From Kiritimatiella glycovorans (GTDB taxonomy: Bacteria; Verrucomicrobiota; Kiritimatiellia; Kiritimatiellales; Kiritimatiellaceae): DNA of 32,000 bases. The translations under genes and the position numbers were made by a program. Below are positions 1,363 through 29,375 of the stretch, one piece after another. The stretch lies in the NCBI RefSeq assembly GCF_001017655.1, contig NZ_CP010904.1:1-32000 (forward strand). The letters run 5' to 3'. Every line of letters starts with the position of its first letter. Positions within the stretch are counted from its first letter, which is position 1. The notes beneath the pieces were generated by a model. It was not told where the DNA came from. It saw only the letters and a program-made list of their open reading frames with translations, and made no database searches.

Positions 1363-1618
1363 TATCCTGTGAATAAACAGCTGAAAAACTGTGGGCAAAC
1401 CGGACCCGATGATAACAAGCGAAGCATTCGTTCACAGGATTCACAGGGGATACCAAGGATATGCACAGACTTGCTGACAAATATAAACTTTGATTTAACA
1501 ATGGGTTACACCCCAAACGCCCTCTTAAAACGGGGTTTTCCACACCTATAATAAGAGGTATACATAAATATAATTTAATCTAATATTAAGATTCCCTGTG
1601 AAGAGAAAGGACGGAACG
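1363..1618. other. candidate oriC in the dnaA-dnaN spacer (DnaA-box-like 9-mers plus an AT-rich unwinding element)
   Basis: TGTGAATAA at 1368-1376 (8/9 to TGTGGATAA), TGTGGGCAA at 1390-1398 (7/9), TTTTCCACA at 1536-1544 (8/9 to TTATCCACA). The core CCTGTGAA occurs four times: 1366-1373 and 1595-1602 on +, 1431-1438 and 1440-1447 on -. A stretch at 1546-1593 is about 85% A+T in an otherwise GC-rich window. Confidence 0.55.
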
Positions 1619-2722
1619 ATGAAATTTCTGATTGAAAAAGAACCTTTGCTGGAGGCCCTCCAGCGAGTCCAGTCGATCGTGGCCCAGCGGCCGACGCTGG
1701 CGATCCTGGCCAATGTGCTGCTCAAGGCGGAGGACCAGCGGATTACCCTCACGACCACAGACCTTGAAGTGAGCGTAAGGACTTCGGTGGAGGCGGATGT
1801 GAGCGAGGAAGGGGGCACGACATTGCCTGCCCGCCGGCTGTTCAGCATCTGCCGGGCGCTGTCGGGCCATCAGGTGGAGATCGAGACCGATGAGAAGGAG
1901 ACCGCGACGATTGACTGCGGTCCTTCGCATTTCAAGCTGATGGGAACGGCGGAGGATGAATTTCCGCCCCTGCCTTCGTTCGAGGCGGGATTGCGTTATG
2001 AAATGGATGAATCGGTCCTGCGGCAGATGCTGGAGAAGACCTGCTATGCCGCATCGACGGACGAGTCGCGTTATATCCTCAACGGGGTCCTGCTCAGCTT
2101 CAAGGAGGAGAAATTGACTGCGGTCGCCACGGACGGCCGCCGACTGGCCATGCTCGAGCAGGAGGTCGAATTTCCGGCGTCGGCGGAAGCGGATTACGTG
2201 ATCCCCACCAAAACGGTTCATGAACTGATCCGTACCCTGGGTGATGAGGGAACGCTCCGTATTGCAGCGACGGATAAAGAGAACCAGATTTCCTTCGAAT
2301 ACGGGCAGATGCTGGTCGTATCGAAGCTGATCGAAGGCACGTTTCCGAACTTCCGGCAGGTGATTCCCTCCGAGAGCGAGGAGCGGGTCGCGATCGAACG
2401 GGAGGGATTGCTCGATGCGCTTAAACGCGCGTCGATCGTCACGGACGCCCAGACGGCCTCCGTGCAGCTTCATTTCTGTGAAAACAGCCTCGAGCTGGTG
2501 ACGCAGAGCCCCGAGGTCGGAACGGCTCAGGAAAAAATGCCGATCAAGTACGACGGCAAGGACATGACGATCGCGTTCAATCCCGTATTTATCATGGATC
2601 CGCTGCGCCACCTGGAGAGCGATGAGATCTATATCGAACTCTCGGATCACCTCAGCCCCGGCGTCATCAAGAGCGATATTCCTTTTCTCTACGTGATCAT
2701 GCCGATACGGGTCAACGAGTAG
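1619..2722 (+). CDS. dnaN: DNA polymerase III beta sliding clamp, 367 aa
   Basis: Start moved to ATG 1619 (MKFLIEKEPLLEAL...) behind AGAAAGGA. N-terminus RPTLAILANVLLKAEDQRITLTTTDLEVS is typical of the clamp. Sits directly after dnaA. Confidence 0.95.
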   Translation: MKFLIEKEPLLEALQRVQSIVAQRPTLAILANVLLKAEDQRITLTTTDLEVSVRTSVEADVSEEGGTTLPARRLFSICRALSGHQVEIETDEKETATIDCGPSHFKLMGTAEDEFPPLPSFEAGLRYEMDESVLRQMLEKTCYAASTDESRYILNGVLLSFKEEKLTAVATDGRRLAMLEQEVEFPASAEADYVIPTKTVHELIRTLGDEGTLRIAATDKENQISFEYGQMLVVSKLIEGTFPNFRQVIPSESEERVAIEREGLLDALKRASIVTDAQTASVQLHFCENSLELVTQSPEVGTAQEKMPIKYDGKDMTIAFNPVFIMDPLRHLESDEIYIELSDHLSPGVIKSDIPFLYVIMPIRVNE

Positions 2723-2728
2723 AAAAGA

Positions 2729-2802
2729 TGGTTGCCGAACCAGGGCTCGAACCTGGACTAACTGGGCCAGAACCAGTCGTGCTACCATTACACCATTCGG
2801 CA
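2729..2802 (-). tRNA. tRNA-Gln, anticodon CUG, CCA encoded
   Basis: Folded by hand from the reverse complement: acceptor TGCCGAA/TTCGGCA, D stem GTGT/GCAC, anticodon stem ACTGG/CCAGT with loop TTCTGGC, T arm CCAGG-TTCGAGC-CCTGG, discriminator A plus CCA. Confidence 0.9.
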
Positions 2803-2817
2803 ATAGCGCAATTCACC

Positions 2818-2845
2818 AAGATAGAAAAAATTCTCATCGGTTCAA
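2818..2845 (-). promoter_or_regulatory. possible sigma-70 promoter for tRNA-Gln (TTGAAC-N16-TATCTT)
   Basis: On the minus strand, TTGAAC (2845-2840) and TATCTT (2823-2818) lie about 15 nt upstream of the tRNA 5' end. Confidence 0.35.
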
Positions 2846-2885
2846 GCGGATAAGACAGAAAATCCTGGCGCGGGGAAATATTCAG

Positions 2886-3158
2886 ATGCCGGACGACAGG
2901 TCTTCGGATAAAAACGAGAAGCGAATCGCCGCGCTGCTGGGTATCGGCTTTGAGCAGGATGGCCACACCAGGTTGAGCTGGGGAAGGGACCACGTGGTCG
3001 GGGGCGGCGACGAGCACGTCCATGAATGGATTGCAGCGTTGTGCCGCCGGGTCGAAAAACGGCTCGAACGCGAGCGGATCGCACTGGCCGATCTGGACAT
3101 CGATGAATTGAAAGTGCTGATCTCCGAAGCGGTGGAAGAGATGCCGGAGGTACGATGA
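2886..3158 (+). CDS. small hypothetical protein, 90 aa
   Basis: The only ORF here with protein-like composition (KRIAALLGIGFEQDGHTRLSWGRDHVVGGGDEHVHEW, acidic helical C-terminus). Co-directional with the glycosyltransferase 50 bp downstream. The RBS is weak. Confidence 0.45.
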   Translation: MPDDRSSDKNEKRIAALLGIGFEQDGHTRLSWGRDHVVGGGDEHVHEWIAALCRRVEKRLERERIALADLDIDELKVLISEAVEEMPEVR

Positions 3159-3207
3159 AGGGCGCAGGAGAAACCGGGATGAGTTCAGGCATCCTTCCGG
3201 GGCGGCC

Positions 3208-4410
3208 ATGAAAATTCTGTTTCTCTCCCACCGTTTCCCCCATTCCCGCATTGCCGGCGGACACCGCCTCGTGTACGAACGCATTCAGTACCTTCTCGGC
3301 CGGGGCTACGAGGTCGGCCTGGCCTCTTTCACCTCGAACGAACCGGGATCGATGCTTCATGAGGCCGCGCAGGAACTCCTGGATCTGCGCACCGTGAAGG
3401 CCCCCCACAAAAACGTGCTCTCACGGGTGGGTCATTACGTGACCCCACGCATGCCGACGATGTTTCTGAGGAATTATTCCGAAGAGATGATGCGCAGGGT
3501 GGGCAACCTTGTGGAAAAGGAACATTACGAGGTGGTGATCGCAGAGTTCTCTGAAATGGGTCAGTACCTCTACTGCAATCCATACCTGCCGGCTGTGAGA
3601 AAAATCATTTCCTGCCACCGGTGCCTCACCACCTCCTTTATGAAATACGTGCGGACGGCGGGACTCCCCTTTCTGCTGCGCGCAAAGAGCCTGCTTCAAT
3701 TTCTTGCCATACGACGCTATGAGTTTGAAATGTACCGGCATATGGACCGGGTCATCGTGCTCACGTCCCAGGACCACAGCGAACTGCTCAACTACGCGCC
3801 GGACCTCTACCTGGATATTGTTCCCATGGGGGTAGACACGGGTTACCTGCAGAAGGAGCAGGTCGAAGAAGAGCGTCCGATCGTGCTGATGACCGGGTAT
3901 TACCGCGACATTGCCAATCTGGACGCGGCGGTGTGGTTCTACCGCTATGTGTGGCCCCGCCTGCGTGAGGATAACCCCGAACTGGAATTTCATATCGTCG
4001 GCGCCGACCCTCCGCGCCGTCTCCAGCGCCTCGGCGCGCGCGATAAACGGGTGACGGTCACCGGCAGGGTGGATGACCTGAGACCGTACCGGCACCGCTC
4101 GCAGGTGTTCGTGTGTCCGGTGAGGCTGGGGGCCGGCGCGCGAACCAAGTGTCTGGAAGCCATGGCTTCGGGCCTCCCCGTGGTGTCGACCTCGCTGGGA
4201 ATGGCCGGACTGCCCGCGGAAAACGGGGATAACTGCCTGGTGGCGGACACGCCGGAACTTATGCGCCAGTGCGTGCAGTGGCTCCTTTCCGACGAACAGC
4301 TCAGAAAAAAGATAAGGAACAATGCGTCTCGTATGATTCGCGAGCGCTTCTCGATGGAAAAAAGCATGGGCGCACTCGAGAAGACGGTTCGGGATGTGGC
4401 TTCACTCTGA
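3208..4410 (+). CDS. GT4-family (GT-B fold) glycosyltransferase, 400 aa
   Basis: N-terminus MKILFLSHRFP. C-terminal donor-binding region GRVDDLRPYRHRSQVFVCPVRLGAGARTKCLEAMASGLPVVST, an EX7E-type motif. Confidence 0.85.
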   Translation: MKILFLSHRFPHSRIAGGHRLVYERIQYLLGRGYEVGLASFTSNEPGSMLHEAAQELLDLRTVKAPHKNVLSRVGHYVTPRMPTMFLRNYSEEMMRRVGNLVEKEHYEVVIAEFSEMGQYLYCNPYLPAVRKIISCHRCLTTSFMKYVRTAGLPFLLRAKSLLQFLAIRRYEFEMYRHMDRVIVLTSQDHSELLNYAPDLYLDIVPMGVDTGYLQKEQVEEERPIVLMTGYYRDIANLDAAVWFYRYVWPRLREDNPELEFHIVGADPPRRLQRLGARDKRVTVTGRVDDLRPYRHRSQVFVCPVRLGAGARTKCLEAMASGLPVVSTSLGMAGLPAENGDNCLVADTPELMRQCVQWLLSDEQLRKKIRNNASRMIRERFSMEKSMGALEKTVRDVASL

Positions 4411-4424
4411 TCCGATCGACCCGT

Positions 4425-5705
4425 TCAGGGCGTGAACCGTCCCCGGAACAGCGTCGCCGCAGCCCTCCCCGTAAGCGTCTTTCCGCAGAAGGGGCTGTTG
4501 CGCGATTTCGAGTGGAAGCGTTCCGGGTCCACGACCCACTCGTGATCCAGGTCCAGGCAGACGAGATCCGCGCGGGCTCCCGGGGCCAGCGACGGAGCGG
4601 GCCGTCCGAGGATGGCGGCCGGCGCCGTCGTCCAGCGCCGCACCCATTCCAGGGGCGAGAGGATTCCGGCGAGCACCGTCGTCGTGAACGTAGCCCCCGC
4701 GGCGGTCTCGGCCCCCACCATTCCGAAGGGCGCATCGATAAACCCCCGCGCCTTGGCTTCCGCCGTGTGCGGTGCGTGGTCCGTGGCAAACACGTCCAGC
4801 GTGCCGTCCCGTACCCCCGCGAGCAGCGCTTCACGATCCCGGGCCGAACGGAGCGGGGGATTCACCTTGAAGTTCGTGTTGCCCGGATCAATGTCGCGGT
4901 CGCAGAACGCGAGATGATGCGGGGTGGCTTCGGCGGTAACGGGCAGCCCCTCTTTTTTCGCCGCGCGGATGAGGTCGACGGAAGCAGCGGCGGATACGTG
5001 CTGAATATGGAGCCGGCAGCCGGTCATGCGGGCGATCGCGATATCCCTTTCGACGATATCGGTTTCCGCGCTTGCCGAAATGCCCGGCAGTCCCAGTTCG
5101 CGCGACCGTTCGCCCTCATGCATAACGCCGCCGGCTTCCAGCTTCGGGTCCTGGGCATGGTCCATAACGAGACCGCCGGTCCGGGCCACGGCGCGGCAGG
5201 CTGCTTCCATGACCTCCGGATCCGACGGCGTCGTGCCGTCGTCGGTGAACGCGACCGCCCCCGCCTGCGCGAGCGCCGTGTAGTCGGCGGGCTGTTCGCC
5301 CGAGCGCGCCGGGGTAAGCGCCGCGGCCGGGAGGATATCGATCAACCCCGCCGCGGAGCTGAGTTCACGTATCCGGCGCACCGCGGCGGGCGAATCGACC
5401 GGCGGGCGCGTATTGGGCATCGAGACCGCGGCGGTAAATCCCCCGGCGGCGAAGGCGCGCGACCCGGTGGCCACGGTTTCCGCCGCCTCGCCGCCGGGTT
5501 CGCGGAAATGGGCGTGCAGATCGATAAAGGCCGGAGCAACGTGAAGACCGCGGGCGTCGTATTCGCGTAGGCCGGGCGGGGTTTCGGACAGGCGGGAGAT
5601 GATCCCGTCCAGCACGAGCAGGTCATCCTCCTGTTCACGGCCCGCCGCGGGGTCGATCAGGGTCGCGCCGCGGAAGAGCACGGATCGGGACGGATCGAAG
5701 GTCAT
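4425..5705 (-). CDS. pyrC: dihydroorotase, about 426 aa
   Basis: Start trimmed to ATG 5705 (MTFDPSRSVLFRGATLIDP). Metal-binding motifs IDLHAHFREPG and VFATDHAPH. Its ATG shares one base with the TAA of the upstream gene (TAATG). Confidence 0.9.
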   Translation of the reverse strand: MTFDPSRSVLFRGATLIDPAAGREQEDDLLVLDGIISRLSETPPGLREYDARGLHVAPAFIDLHAHFREPGGEAAETVATGSRAFAAGGFTAAVSMPNTRPPVDSPAAVRRIRELSSAAGLIDILPAAALTPARSGEQPADYTALAQAGAVAFTDDGTTPSDPEVMEAACRAVARTGGLVMDHAQDPKLEAGGVMHEGERSRELGLPGISASAETDIVERDIAIARMTGCRLHIQHVSAAASVDLIRAAKKEGLPVTAEATPHHLAFCDRDIDPGNTNFKVNPPLRSARDREALLAGVRDGTLDVFATDHAPHTAEAKARGFIDAPFGMVGAETAAGATFTTTVLAGILSPLEWVRRWTTAPAAILGRPAPSLAPGARADLVCLDLDHEWVVDPERFHSKSRNSPFCGKTLTGRAAATLFRGRFTP

Positions 5706-7012
5706 TACAGCTCCGATAGCTTCATTTCGCCCAGCTTCTGCCGGAAGCCTTCCCGGGCGGCGTCCAGGGCGCGGTCCACCGATTCGGGCAGGCCGCCCAG
5801 ACCGCACTGTTCCATGGAGGCGCCCTCGTTGAGCAACAGCTGGTAGAGTTCGTCTACCGCGATGTTGCGCGGATCGCGCAGCAGCGTGTAGGCCTTGGGG
5901 TTGTCCGCCGTGCCCGTAATGTACCCGGCGCTCCGCAGGGTATCGACGATCTTCCGGACCAGACGGGCGGGAAGATGGTGATCCCGCGCAAAGCCCGCGC
6001 TGTCGAGCGGGATGCCGCGATTCTCGAAATCGTCCCTCAACTCGCGCATGACCATGAGCGCCACCGCAAGCTGGGTAAAGACGCTGGCGCGGGCGGCGAT
6101 GCGCTCGCGGTGGTAGGACCCCGCATGCTGGGAGGAGAACGACAGCTCCGCCCCGAACAGCAGGATCATCCAGCTTATCTGCAGCCAGAAGAGAAAGATG
6201 GGGATCAGGGCGAAGGTCCCGTAGATCGCGTTGTACCGGGCGACGCCGACCTGGAACTTGATGAATACGATCTGCCAGAGCACCCAGAGGATGGCGCCGA
6301 CGAGTCCGCCCAGGGCGGCGGATCGCAGCGGAACCGACGTATTGGGAAGAAAGACGTAGAGCGAGATGAAAGCAAGGGTCGTGATGGCGATCGGCATGAG
6401 CCGGAGACCGATGCTGACGAGCGGGCCGAGCACCGCGATCTTTTCCAGGTAGACCTGGATCAGTGAGACACACGTCACGGCCACCGCCATAAGCAGCGGC
6501 GCCACGACCAGGACGGTGATGTAGTTCTGACACTTGCGAAGAAAGTTGCGCGGCGTAACCACGCCCCAGATCACGTTGAAGGTCTCCTCGATCCGGTTGA
6601 TCATCTTGATGACCACCAGCAGCAGGGCCAGCGCGCCGACAGCTCCGAGCGCGGCGAAGCTGGTCTCGCGGGCCAGTTCGATGACCTTCTCGATGAACCG
6701 CTGAAACTGTTCGGGCATCTGCGCCGAAAATTCGATCAGCTTTTCGGTCGCCAGCGTCCCGCCGAAGGCGTTGCTGATGGTGAACAGCACGGCCAGCAGC
6801 GGGACGAGCGCCATGACCGTGCTGAACGTGAGCGCGGAGGCCTGCAGAGGACACTGATCGCTGCGGAACCCTTTGAACGCGAGGACGAGTACACGGGCGG
6901 CTTTGAGCACGCGCCGTCGGGTGCCGGAGAGCGCCGCCGACTCAATCTCCCAGATATCGATTTGGCGCCATTCGTTCAGGCGATCACGCCAGTTTTTTTT
7001 GCCGCCGCTCAT
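5705..7012 (-). CDS. YihY/BrkB-family inner-membrane protein with a C-terminal soluble extension of about 130 aa, 435 aa
   Basis: QASALTFSTVMALVPLLAVLF plus multiple hydrophobic helices typical of YihY/BrkB. The C-terminal third is non-membrane and looks like a winged helix. Confidence 0.8.
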   Translation of the reverse strand: MSGGKKNWRDRLNEWRQIDIWEIESAALSGTRRRVLKAARVLVLAFKGFRSDQCPLQASALTFSTVMALVPLLAVLFTISNAFGGTLATEKLIEFSAQMPEQFQRFIEKVIELARETSFAALGAVGALALLLVVIKMINRIEETFNVIWGVVTPRNFLRKCQNYITVLVVAPLLMAVAVTCVSLIQVYLEKIAVLGPLVSIGLRLMPIAITTLAFISLYVFLPNTSVPLRSAALGGLVGAILWVLWQIVFIKFQVGVARYNAIYGTFALIPIFLFWLQISWMILLFGAELSFSSQHAGSYHRERIAARASVFTQLAVALMVMRELRDDFENRGIPLDSAGFARDHHLPARLVRKIVDTLRSAGYITGTADNPKAYTLLRDPRNIAVDELYQLLLNEGASMEQCGLGGLPESVDRALDAAREGFRQKLGEMKLSEL

Positions 7013-22618: not shown

Positions 22619-24523
22619 ATGAATCAGGCATCCTACGAAGTGCTGGTGGTCGGTGGCGGCCACGCCGGAGTCGAGGCCGCCCTGGCCGCGGCACGGCTCG
22701 GAGGACGGGTTGCGCTGGTGACCCTGTCCCGCGACAGCATCGGCCGCATGTCCTGCAACCCCTCCATCGGCGGGATCGCCAAATCTCATATCGTCTGCGA
22801 GATCGACGCCCTCGGAGGGGAGATGGCCCGCAATACGGATTATACCGGGATCCAATACCGGACGCTCAACACAAGGAAAGGCCCCGCCGTACAGGCCCAT
22901 CGCGTCCAGAACGACAAGCAGGCCTACCCCCGCAGGCTGCAGGCCGTCATCGACGCCGTCAGCAGCCTCGATGTGTTTGAAGAAGAAGTCACCGCCCTGT
23001 GGATCAAAGACGCCCGGCTGCGGGGCGTCTGCACCGCACGCTCAGGCGTAATCGCAGCCGAAACCGTGGTGCTTACCGCAGGAACCTTCCTCGGCGCCCG
23101 CGTCCTCATCGGACACCAGAGCCGCGCCGAAGGACGCTTCGGCGACCCCGCGTCCGACCAACTGGCGGCCTCGCTGCGGGCCCTCGGCCTCTCCATGGAC
23201 CGCCTCAAGACCGGAACGCCCCCCAGGCTCCACAAAGACAGCATCGACTACGCAAAATTGAAGCCACAGCCCGGGTTCGAGCCCCCGCCCTTCTTTTCTC
23301 TCGCCGCACGGAAAGAGCGGGATCGATGGTTCCACGTGGAACATTCCGGGGAAAGAGAGCGTGCGCGGTGTGCGATGTTCCACGTGGAACATGAGTCTTC
23401 CGAAATGGCGCCCTGGGTTCCGGGATCGGGGCAGATCCCCTGCTGGCTGGGCGAGACGAATGAACGCACGCACGAGATCATACGGGAGAATCTGGAAAAG
23501 AGTTCGCTCTATGGCGGGCAGGTTACGGGGACGGGGGTCCGGTATTGCCCGTCGATCGAGGACAAGATCGTGAAGTTCCCGGATCGGAATGCGCATCATG
23601 TGTTCGTGGAGCCGGAGGGACGCGGCAATCCCCGGGTTTATCCGAATGGCACTTCGAACAGCCTTCCTGTCGAGGTTCAGGAGGAGATGATTCACTCGAT
23701 CCGCGGCCTCGAACGCGCGGAGTTTATCCGTCCGGGCTATGCCATCGAGTATGATTTCGTGGACCCGACCCAGCTGAACCATTCCCTGGAGACGCGGGAG
23801 GTGGAGAATCTTTTCTGTGCGGGACAGATCAACGGGACGACGGGCTACGAGGAAGCTGCGGGACAGGGGTTCGTTGCGGGGGTGAATGCGCTGAGAAAGG
23901 TGCGCGGAGCCGACCCGGTGCTGCTCGGGCGCGATGAGGCCTACATCGGGGTTCTGATCGACGACCTGGTGACCCGCGGGACGGATGAGCCCTATCGCAT
24001 GTTTACTTCGCGGGCGGAATACCGCCTGCTGCTCCGGCAGGATAATGCGCGCTTCAGGCTCCGCGCGCTCGCGGAGGAGATCGGCCTGGTGCGTCCTGAG
24101 GTTCTGCGCGAGACGGACGGTCTGGAATCGGCGGTGAGCGCTGAAATGGAACGGCTTGAAACCACGTTCCGGGGCCAGTCGTCGCTGGCACAGCTGTTAC
24201 GCCGCCCTGAGAACACCTACGAGGATCTTCCGGAGCGCGATGCGGGTTTGTCATCGGAGGCGGCCCGCCAGGTTGAGATCCGCATTAAATACGGCGGATA
24301 TATACAGAGAGAACTGGACAAGCTTAAGAGGGCGAGGCCGCTGGAGGAGGTAGCGATCCCGGGGGGGATCGATTACCGGGGGATCGCCGCGTTCCGCTAC
24401 GAGGCGGCGGAAAAACTGGACCGCATTCGGCCCGAGACGCTCGCGCAGGCGGCCCGAATCCCCGGCGTGAATCCGCCCGATATCGCGATCCTCCAGATGC
24501 ATATCCGCCGCATGACGGGATGA
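22619..24523 (+). CDS. mnmG: tRNA uridine-5-carboxymethylaminomethyl modification enzyme MnmG (GidA), 634 aa, with an internal insertion of about 34 aa
   Basis: FAD motif VVGGGHAGVEAALAAAR. GQINGTTGYEEAAGQG. RYCPSIEDK. Confidence 0.96.
   Translation: MNQASYEVLVVGGGHAGVEAALAAARLGGRVALVTLSRDSIGRMSCNPSIGGIAKSHIVCEIDALGGEMARNTDYTGIQYRTLNTRKGPAVQAHRVQNDKQAYPRRLQAVIDAVSSLDVFEEEVTALWIKDARLRGVCTARSGVIAAETVVLTAGTFLGARVLIGHQSRAEGRFGDPASDQLAASLRALGLSMDRLKTGTPPRLHKDSIDYAKLKPQPGFEPPPFFSLAARKERDRWFHVEHSGERERARCAMFHVEHESSEMAPWVPGSGQIPCWLGETNERTHEIIRENLEKSSLYGGQVTGTGVRYCPSIEDKIVKFPDRNAHHVFVEPEGRGNPRVYPNGTSNSLPVEVQEEMIHSIRGLERAEFIRPGYAIEYDFVDPTQLNHSLETREVENLFCAGQINGTTGYEEAAGQGFVAGVNALRKVRGADPVLLGRDEAYIGVLIDDLVTRGTDEPYRMFTSRAEYRLLLRQDNARFRLRALAEEIGLVRPEVLRETDGLESAVSAEMERLETTFRGQSSLAQLLRRPENTYEDLPERDAGLSSEAARQVEIRIKYGGYIQRELDKLKRARPLEEVAIPGGIDYRGIAAFRYEAAEKLDRIRPETLAQAARIPGVNPPDIAILQMHIRRMTG
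23328..23343. other. parS-like site 1 (GGTTCCACGTGGAACA), inside mnmG
   Basis: Matches 15 of 16 positions of the palindrome TGTTCCACGTGGAACA. The 14-bp core GTTCCACGTGGAAC is perfect. This is the GC-rich variant of the parS consensus TGTTNCACGTGAAACA. Confidence 0.7.
23376..23391. other. parS-like site 2 (TGTTCCACGTGGAACA), inside mnmG
   Basis: Perfect 16-bp palindrome, 48 bp centre-to-centre from site 1. Both are read in frame as FHVEH. Confidence 0.75.
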
Positions 24524-28712: not shown

Positions 28713-29375
28713 TCAGCGTTTCCGGCGCCGGTTGATCTCGTCGGCGGGGATGAAGATCAGGACCTTGGTTTCGAGTTCCGGCTCCTCGATCCAGAGCGAG
28801 AGCGGGAAGAGTTCGTAGTCCTCGATCCCCGCCTCGTCCAGCTCCAGGCTCGGATCGCCGCCCTTCAGGTAGAACAGTCCGCGGCGCTCCTCCCCGTGCG
28901 CACCCGCCCCGATGCGTCCGCGGAGCCAGTCGCACAGGGTCGCCAGCGATTTCAGCGCGCGGCCCGTGACGAAATCGAACCGCTCCTCCATGGATTCGAT
29001 TCTCGCGCGCCGGACCTCGACATTAGCGAGTTCCAGCCGGTCGACGAGGTCTTCCAGCACGCGGGTTTTCTTGGCCACGGAGTCCACCAGGGTGAACCGG
29101 CAGTCGGGGCGCAGGATGGCCAGCGGGAGTCCCGGCAGGCCGCCCCCGCTGCCCGCATCCATGATGGCGGAGTCGGCGGGAAAATCGACGGCGCGCAGTA
29201 CGGCGAGCGAGGGCAGCAGGTGTTTGCGTTCGAAGTTGGGCATATCCCGTCGGGAGACGAGATTGATGCGTTCATTCCACCAGCCCAGCAGGCGCGCATA
29301 TTCGGCGAGTACGTGTCGCTGGTTCTCGTCGAGTTCGGGAAAGTTCTGTCGGACCAGCGGAAGTGGCTCACTCAT
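28713..29375 (-). CDS. rsmG: 16S rRNA (guanine527-N7)-methyltransferase RsmG (GidB), 220 aa
   Basis: SAM motif IMDAGSGGGLPGLPLAI. WNERINLVS. Its ATG overlaps the argC stop (ATGA). Confidence 0.9.
   Translation of the reverse strand: MSEPLPLVRQNFPELDENQRHVLAEYARLLGWWNERINLVSRRDMPNFERKHLLPSLAVLRAVDFPADSAIMDAGSGGGLPGLPLAILRPDCRFTLVDSVAKKTRVLEDLVDRLELANVEVRRARIESMEERFDFVTGRALKSLATLCDWLRGRIGAGAHGEERRGLFYLKGGDPSLELDEAGIEDYELFPLSLWIEEPELETKVLIFIPADEINRRRKR

Follow-up and report, generated by a model that had tools for sequence, protein, structure and literature searches.

Palindromes matching the parS consensus lie in frame within an expanded loop of mnmG in Kiritimatiella glycovorans and its relatives

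Two parS-like palindromes lie in frame within mnmG

We analysed the first 32,000 nucleotides of contig NZ_CP010904.1 of Kiritimatiella glycovorans (the window), in which the gene mnmG (gidA) carries two short palindromes resembling parS, the chromosomal site bound by the partition protein ParB. A sequence-only reading of this DNA had reported two parS-consensus sites, 48 bp apart and both translated as FHVEH in the mnmG frame, and we found their sequences, positions and translation as claimed (Table 1). Compared with the 16-bp palindrome tGTTNCACGTGNAACa, the second site has 0 mismatches and the first has 1; the latter reads TGTTCCACGTGGAACC on the opposite strand. The second site is also, as had been stated, a perfect palindrome identical to TGTTNCACGTGNAACA. 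The two copies form a 16-nt direct repeat and at the same time an inverted repeat, with a start-to-start distance of 48 bp. The window contains exactly two copies of the 14-mer GTTCCACGTGGAAC (23329-23342 and 23377-23390), where about 0.13 matches would be expected by chance even with up to 2 mismatches allowed. No further parS-like 16-mer was found in the 32 kb, in agreement with the earlier statement on this point; the sole other match has 3 mismatches, which is the chance level.

The host gene is an intact mnmG, whose product is a tRNA uridine-5-carboxymethylaminomethyl modification enzyme. This protein combines the FAD-binding (flavin adenine dinucleotide) domain GIDA (PF01134, E = 7.5e-149) with the C-terminal helical domains PF21680 and PF13932, and matches MnmG structures in the PDB with E = 8e-167. 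The GIDA match is, however, broken into two pieces at residue 233.

Table 1. Features of the window considered in this study.
Feature	Position	Strand	Description
mnmG (gidA), host gene	22619-24523	+	Intact 634-aa open reading frame; Pfam GIDA and both C-terminal domains
In-frame mnmG expansion, LAARKERDRWFHVEHSGERERARCAMFHVEHESSEMAPWVPGSGQ	23300-23434	+	aa 228-272, 45 residues between FFS and IPCW; both sites inside
Putative parS site 1, GGTTCCACGTGGAACA	23328-23343	.	1 mismatch (position 1) to TGTTNCACGTGNAACA; translated (W)FHVEH
Putative parS site 2, TGTTCCACGTGGAACA	23376-23391	.	Perfect 16-bp palindrome, 0 mismatches; translated (M)FHVEH
dnaA	1-1362	+	Pfam; origin-region marker
dnaN	1598-2722	+	Pfam; origin-region marker
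rsmG (gidB)	28713-29375	-	Pfam GidB; apart from mnmG, opposite strand, no parA/parB adjoining

An extra segment of MnmG accommodates both sites

Both palindromes fall in a segment of mnmG that stands where E. coli MnmG has 10 residues, as had been stated in the sequence-only reading. That reading counted 44 codons between FFS and IPCW instead of 45. HMMER alignments to the solved MnmG structures end at query residue 230-238 and restart at 266-272; in those to 3CP2/3CES, query residues 231-271 replace E. coli MnmG residues 252-258. We also measured the length of the loop from GTPPR to THTNE across 80 genomes. It is 49-52 aa in Firmicutes, Proteobacteria, Acidobacteriota, Nitrospirota and other bacteria outside the Planctomycetes-Verrucomicrobia-Chlamydiae (PVC) group, 50-154 aa among Verrucomicrobiota-type genomes and 84 aa in the MnmG of the window. 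Since the loop is 84 aa long here as against 49-52 aa in non-PVC bacteria, the insertion is real and amounts to a net 33-35 aa or so, which agrees with the proposed expansion of about 100 bp.

The position of the segment in the protein was assessed with an AlphaFold2 model of the window MnmG built on 64 homologues (mean predicted local distance difference test score, pLDDT, 88.4; predicted template modelling score, pTM, 0.91). The only long stretch of low confidence, with pLDDT < 50, comprises residues 239-259. Since this stretch coincides with the centre of the insert, the model fits a flexible surface loop, which is what had been expected. Extra residues in the same loop were also seen in MnmG of Phycisphaerales (Planctomycetota; loci L046, 9396-9659, and L048, 1506-1727), where no parS-like sequence accompanies them. 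Because Phycisphaerae have extra residues at the same point without the palindromes, this loop is a general insertion hotspot in the PVC group, tolerant of added sequence.

The sites are conserved in the mnmG loop across a very deep clade

We followed the sites among relatives at both the protein and the DNA level. The protein set consisted of the 120 closest MnmG clusters, 58-63% identical to the window MnmG, whose named members are from Kiritimatiellia, Pontiellaceae and "Verrucomicrobiota". FHVE[HQ] is present at about aa 236 and/or about aa 252 in 113 of the 120, and several of the remaining clusters have CSTWN or VPRGT at the same place. Both result from translating the 16-mer in the two remaining frames: TGT TCC ACG TGG AAC A gives CSTWN and x xT GTT CCA CGT GGA ACA gives VPRGT.

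The DNA set comprised 80 genomes with an alignment of the mnmG region, ranked by similarity to the insert-bearing query; a 16-mer with up to 2 mismatches was taken as parS-like. Such 16-mers were found in the same mnmG loop in 50 of the 80 genomes, namely in Pontiella, Kiritimatiellia, Lentisphaerae/Victivallales, Opitutia, Verrucomicrobiia, the "PVC group", one metagenome-assembled genome (MAG) labelled Neomarinimicrobiota and a few genomes without a label. None was found in the loops of 4 Planctomycetota loci or of the loci from other phyla. The 50 loops hold 93 sites, 67 of them exactly TGTTCCACGTGGAACA. Two sites per locus is the usual number (38 loci), with one site in 10 loci, three in 1 and four in 1; neighbouring sites are 27-156 bp apart, most often 48 bp. 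The reading frame gives FHVE at 76 sites, VPRGT at 9 and CSTWN at 8. Thus, insert-bearing relatives nearly always have the palindromes, at the DNA level and in three frames, which answers the question raised earlier of whether the insert carries parS. The insertion had been called lineage-specific; the lineage is very broad (Kiritimatiellia, Lentisphaerae, Opitutia and Verrucomicrobiia), and in some Verrucomicrobiia the loop shows no net insertion, with one site at the native position.

Outside the insert the motif is rare. In 767 kb of DNA flanking the loops of the 50 relatives we found only 5 perfect consensus sites, all of them upstream of mnmG and in 4 lineages (L009, L017, L032 and L060) with one or only degenerate loop site. 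Three lineages with a single loop site (L009, 404-419; L017, 1681-1696; L032, 8729-9291) have 1-3 extra perfect or near-perfect parS 0.1-0.7 kb upstream of the mnmG stop-to-stop open reading frame. It looks as if a minimum number of sites were kept around mnmG.

Some loops are considerably longer. In three Kiritimatiellia/Verrucomicrobiota loci (L042, 10104-10355; L044, 3885-3984; L047, 10116-10369) the loop reaches about 145-154 aa with 2-4 sites (3 in L042 and 4 in L047), and the FHVE, VPRGT and CSTWN frames are mixed within one gene. The MAG labelled Candidatus Neomarinimicrobiota (L028, 2642-2887) has a Verrucomicrobiota-type insert with two GGTTCCACGTGGAACA sites, read as WFHVEQ; either the contig was mis-binned or mislabelled, or such inserts reach beyond the PVC group.

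Selection acts on the DNA and not on the encoded peptide

A conserved peptide and a conserved DNA site can be told apart at synonymous positions. We compared the 29 genomes that share the offset of the first site (GC contents of 45-66%); this set includes the window shifted by one codon, so that the values are slightly too low. Identity at third-codon positions is 90-100% inside the 16-mer and averages 47% over 45 flanking codons, even at invariant Gly, Thr and Pro. Codon choice gives the same picture. When FHVE peptides were gathered from the inserts irrespective of their DNA (n = 72), 66 were encoded by TTC-CAC-GTG-GAA, where the codon usage of the same genes predicts 4.1%. The conserved block also has sharp edges: positions 2-15 each carry about 2 bits of information, and the value drops below 0.5 bit just outside positions 1 and 16. 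The codon before F varies among M, L and V (NTG) and the one after E between H and Q (CAN), and these are the codons that the 16-mer covers only in part.

Since three frames are used, synonymous sites are frozen and the edges are sharp, selection acts on the DNA, and selection on the peptide can be ruled out. The 16-mer is thus under purifying selection as DNA, as judged from wobble positions, codon choice and frame usage alike.

The palindromes are identical to characterised parS and lie near the replication origin

In sequence, the element is a canonical parS. Pseudomonas aeruginosa parS2/parS3 have the sequence TGTTCCACGTGGAACA, and parS1/parS4 have TGTTCCACGTGGAACC; these four are the highest-affinity ParB sites of that organism, with parS2/parS3 bound most strongly, one of them suffices for segregation, and 9 of its 10 parS sites lie inside coding sequences (PMC4368675). 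The arrangement described by the Bartosik/Jagura-Burdzy laboratory has 16-mers identical to ours; its sites cluster near the origin, and most of them are intragenic. It differs in that the P. aeruginosa sites are not known to have an in-frame expansion of a conserved enzyme dedicated to them, and conservation at an orthologous codon position across a phylum was not reported for them. Moreover, parAB lies near the origin-proximal sites of P. aeruginosa (~7 kb from oriC), whereas none lies near the sites of the window.

Position along the chromosome agrees with a centromere as well. The sites had been described as origin-proximal, about 23 kb from dnaA, and we measured about 21-23 kb to the dnaA-dnaN region of the window; among the 50 parS-bearing relatives, 17 have dnaA/dnaN at a distance of 3-10 kb from mnmG. 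By both measures the sites have the origin-proximal location of chromosomal parS.

In order to see, in an unbiased sample, where such motifs occur more widely, we scanned metagenome contigs for pairs of the 15-mer GTTCCACGTGGAACA with 12-42 bases between the copies, so that the spacing of pairs is 27-57 bp by design. Of 120 pair loci, 53 adjoin parA/parB, with the pair typically between rsmG and parA, 16 adjoin rsmG or dnaA/dnaN, and 21 lie within 300 bp of an mnmG end. Six are inside mnmG at the position of the window's insert, and these six also encode the MnmG proteins most like that of the window (46-58% identity). A further 5 have mnmG elsewhere in the locus (32 loci contain mnmG altogether), and 19, mostly on short contigs, fall in none of the listed settings. 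Because most of these pairs adjoin parA/parB, rsmG or mnmG, we read the motif as the site of ParB. Across bacteria the paired motif is a signature of partition loci, and mnmG is regularly found beside parS; an intragenic location is the minority architecture, seen in the clade of the window. Pair spacing shows no sharp preferred phase. Since it also varies among the mnmG inserts, the sites look like independent loading sites.

In the loci with pairs near mnmG ends (L084, L089, L102, L104, L108, L120, L123, L155, L189-L191, L198 and others), no more than 300 bp separate the pair from the gene's start or end, and in some the pair overlaps codons at the very beginning or end of the stop-to-stop frame. 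These loci come from other phyla, and their MnmG proteins are about 41-46% identical to that of the window. Other positions in mnmG are also occupied: L072 and L077 each carry a site towards its 3' end, and L076 (Rickettsiales) carries two at other places in the gene.

Also close to the present arrangement is the classical mnmG(gidA)-rsmG(gidB)-parA-parB cluster, which has the same motif, a similar pair spacing and the same tie to mnmG and the origin region. Its sites, however, lie between genes or at gene edges beside parAB, whereas those of the window lie in the middle of mnmG with no parAB nearby. A functional parS within a protein-coding gene is not without precedent, as one of Bacillus subtilis reportedly lies inside the spo0J (parB) coding sequence (Lin and Grossman 1998). 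In that case the host gene is parB itself, and we know of no insertion or loop expansion, nor of conservation in three frames across a phylum, described for it.

The palindromes as a proposed centromere housed in mnmG

We propose that the palindromes are functional chromosomal parS centromere sites housed in a coding loop of mnmG, with the DNA selected and the peptide carried along, and we put the probability of this at about 0.85. According to this proposal, the palindromes would act as loading sites for ParB-CTP (cytidine triphosphate) clamps, and ParB would then recruit ParA and SMC to the origin region. We infer ParB as the reader of the sites and their role in segregation or SMC loading; in mechanism, too, the element is probably a canonical parS. 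The sites would be tolerated in the flexible surface loop, selection would maintain the 16 bp of DNA, and FHVEH, VPRGT or CSTWN, depending on the frame, would be a passenger. Most bacteria would have their parS pairs within the mnmG-rsmG-parA-parB cluster or next to it; parAB would have moved off in Verrucomicrobiota sensu lato, where the centromere would have stayed with mnmG near dnaA.

Several points weigh against this explanation. The first is the absence of the presumed binding protein from the neighbourhood. The sequence-only reading had noted that no parA or parB is adjacent and that rsmG is on the other strand, and we likewise found neither ParA nor ParB among the scanned open reading frames of the window, by Pfam or by regular expressions and phmmer. 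The phmmer queries were 5 ParB and 2 ParA sequences from classical loci. With the same regular expressions and queries we found no ParB or ParA in any Verrucomicrobiota-type locus, and none is present within 10 kb of mnmG in 50 of 50 parS-bearing relatives. In classical loci rsmG-parA-parB come directly after mnmG, and ParB was found 2-6 kb downstream of the same mnmG anchor point in loci of Bacilli, Acidobacteriota, SAR86, Rickettsiales, Bacteriovoracaceae and Eisenbacteria. The classical gidA-gidB-parAB arrangement is thus broken up, as had been suggested, not only in the window but throughout the clade. Within the phylum, the sole support, an indirect one, comes from a report of ParABS homologues in Akkermansia (PMC10197239). 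The second point is that the conservation statistics count related genomes as independent, so that the binomial P value for the FHVE codons assumes more independence than there is, even if the effect is very large. Finally, the relatives were chosen by similarity to an insert-bearing query, and we do not claim that the feature is universal in the phylum.

The codons at the native position hint at a possible origin of the sites. In many outgroups this position reads L-(D/E)-V-E-Q-(L/M)-P-C and its DNA is 4-6 mismatches away from parS. Three Verrucomicrobiia-type loci (L061, 9657-9672; L062, 10104-10119; L075, 10152-10167) have a single site at the native ..FHVEQLPC.., in L062 without any net insertion. 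Since the native codons GTG GAA CA are already one parS half-site, and the single Verrucomicrobiia site is located exactly there, a de novo origin is possible: to judge from these codons, the sites may have evolved in place from native L-D/E-V-E-Q-(L/I)-P-C, and later duplication and loop expansion may have given two, three or four of them. 

A further reading would make the loop itself functional. Its main role would be to house the clade's centromere, so that it is not merely tolerated, and the sites would have arisen de novo from VEQ codons and been amplified in frame. ParB clamps loading within the actively transcribed and translated mnmG could then couple its expression to the replication and segregation cycle, or else ParB could be cleared or positioned with the aid of mnmG transcription. 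As a whole we consider this account unlikely; if true, it would be one of the rare cases in which a protein segment can be traced to a non-coding function that created it and keeps it in place.

It could also be that another DNA-binding protein recognises the palindromes, either a paralogue of the ParB/Noc family or a regulator recognising the CACGTG core, for example at an operator or roadblock controlling mnmG. The lack of parB near the sites in every relative and their location within a transcribed gene would suit such a protein. However, conservation extends beyond the CACGTG core to all 16 positions, ParB sites validated by experiment have the same sequence (PMC4368675), and pairs of the same 15-mer adjoin parA/parB in other bacteria. 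We thus regard a different reader as improbable.

Selection for an mRNA structure, in which pairing between the palindromes, or folding of each one back on itself, modulates translation or stability of mnmG, deserves attention because the 132-nt insert RNA has a predicted fold of -56.1 kcal/mol (z = -2.4 relative to shuffled sequences) with the sites paired over about 17 bp in a long stem. However, since any two copies of a palindrome must pair, such a fold follows automatically from the sequence. In addition, relatives keep the primary sequence invariant and show no covariation, the spacing ranges over the 27-156 bp given above, 10 lineages have a single site, and the same sequence is conserved intergenically beside parAB in other phyla. 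In view of the invariant sequence, variable spacing and single-site lineages this explanation was rejected as highly improbable. Independently of what the DNA does, the predicted stem between the palindromes (23328-23391) could impede translation of mnmG.

Selection at the protein level, such as on a His-rich FHVEH motif working in MnmG with only a coincidental likeness to parS, would account for the very wide occurrence of FHVE[HQ] among relatives. Yet other lineages translate this DNA as VPRGT or CSTWN, its synonymous positions are frozen, residues vary (the first among M, L and V, the last between H and Q) exactly where the 16-mer ends in mid-codon, and the loop is predicted to be disordered. 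With three frames, frozen synonymous sites and sharp edges, we rejected this reading and give it hardly any credence. A dispersed mobile or repetitive element of the repetitive extragenic palindrome (REP) or miniature inverted-repeat transposable element (MITE) kind, landed in frame by chance, would explain the perfect direct and inverted repeat pair, but was rejected, with practically negligible probability, on copy number (two in 32 kb and almost none in the 767 kb of flanks) and on orthologous position over a very deep clade, with no similarity past the 16-mer plus one base.

Novelty and significance of the locus

If the palindromes are centromere sites as proposed, the locus is an unusually clean natural case of a DNA-binding site dictating the sequence of a universally conserved enzyme, and across a very deep bacterial radiation the same 16 bp are maintained whichever of the three reading frames they fall in. 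For Kiritimatiellia, Lentisphaerae and Verrucomicrobiia, the locus probably marks where the origin-proximal centromere lies. To our knowledge there is no experimental segregation work in these three groups, and the sites give immediate targets for such studies in cultivable members, such as Kiritimatiella or Pontiella. The FHVE[HQ]/VPRGT/CSTWN signature in MnmG can also serve to flag origin-proximal contigs among the MAGs of the phylum, and the sites account for the odd "lineage-specific insert" that annotators and structure predictors face in these MnmG proteins. As both the parS element and its presumed mechanism are canonical, the understanding of ParABS systems is left unchanged. What appears to be undescribed is the setting: sites in the frame of a conserved enzyme, within an expansion dedicated to them, maintained in each of the three frames throughout a very deep clade and apart from parAB. 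We found no literature report of parS inside mnmG, or of FHVEH, FHVEQ or FHVKH peptides, the main parS survey (Livny et al. 2007) being outside our coverage.

Other features of the window

The gene directly upstream of mnmG is a release-factor gene, and alaS lies downstream on the minus strand. We did not locate oriC in the window by a DnaA-box scan (5 matches, 2.2 expected) or by GC skew; the DnaA-box matches flanking dnaA are only weak (1368-1376 and 1536-1544). After dnaA-dnaN (2723-4410) comes a group-1 glycosyltransferase gene (3208-4410) and not the common recF-gyrB. At 5705-7012 on the minus strand, a 435-aa open reading frame, whose Rrf2 match is slightly below the Pfam cut-off, fuses a BrkB/YihY-type membrane domain (aa 51-296) to an Rrf2-type regulator-like region (aa 314-435).

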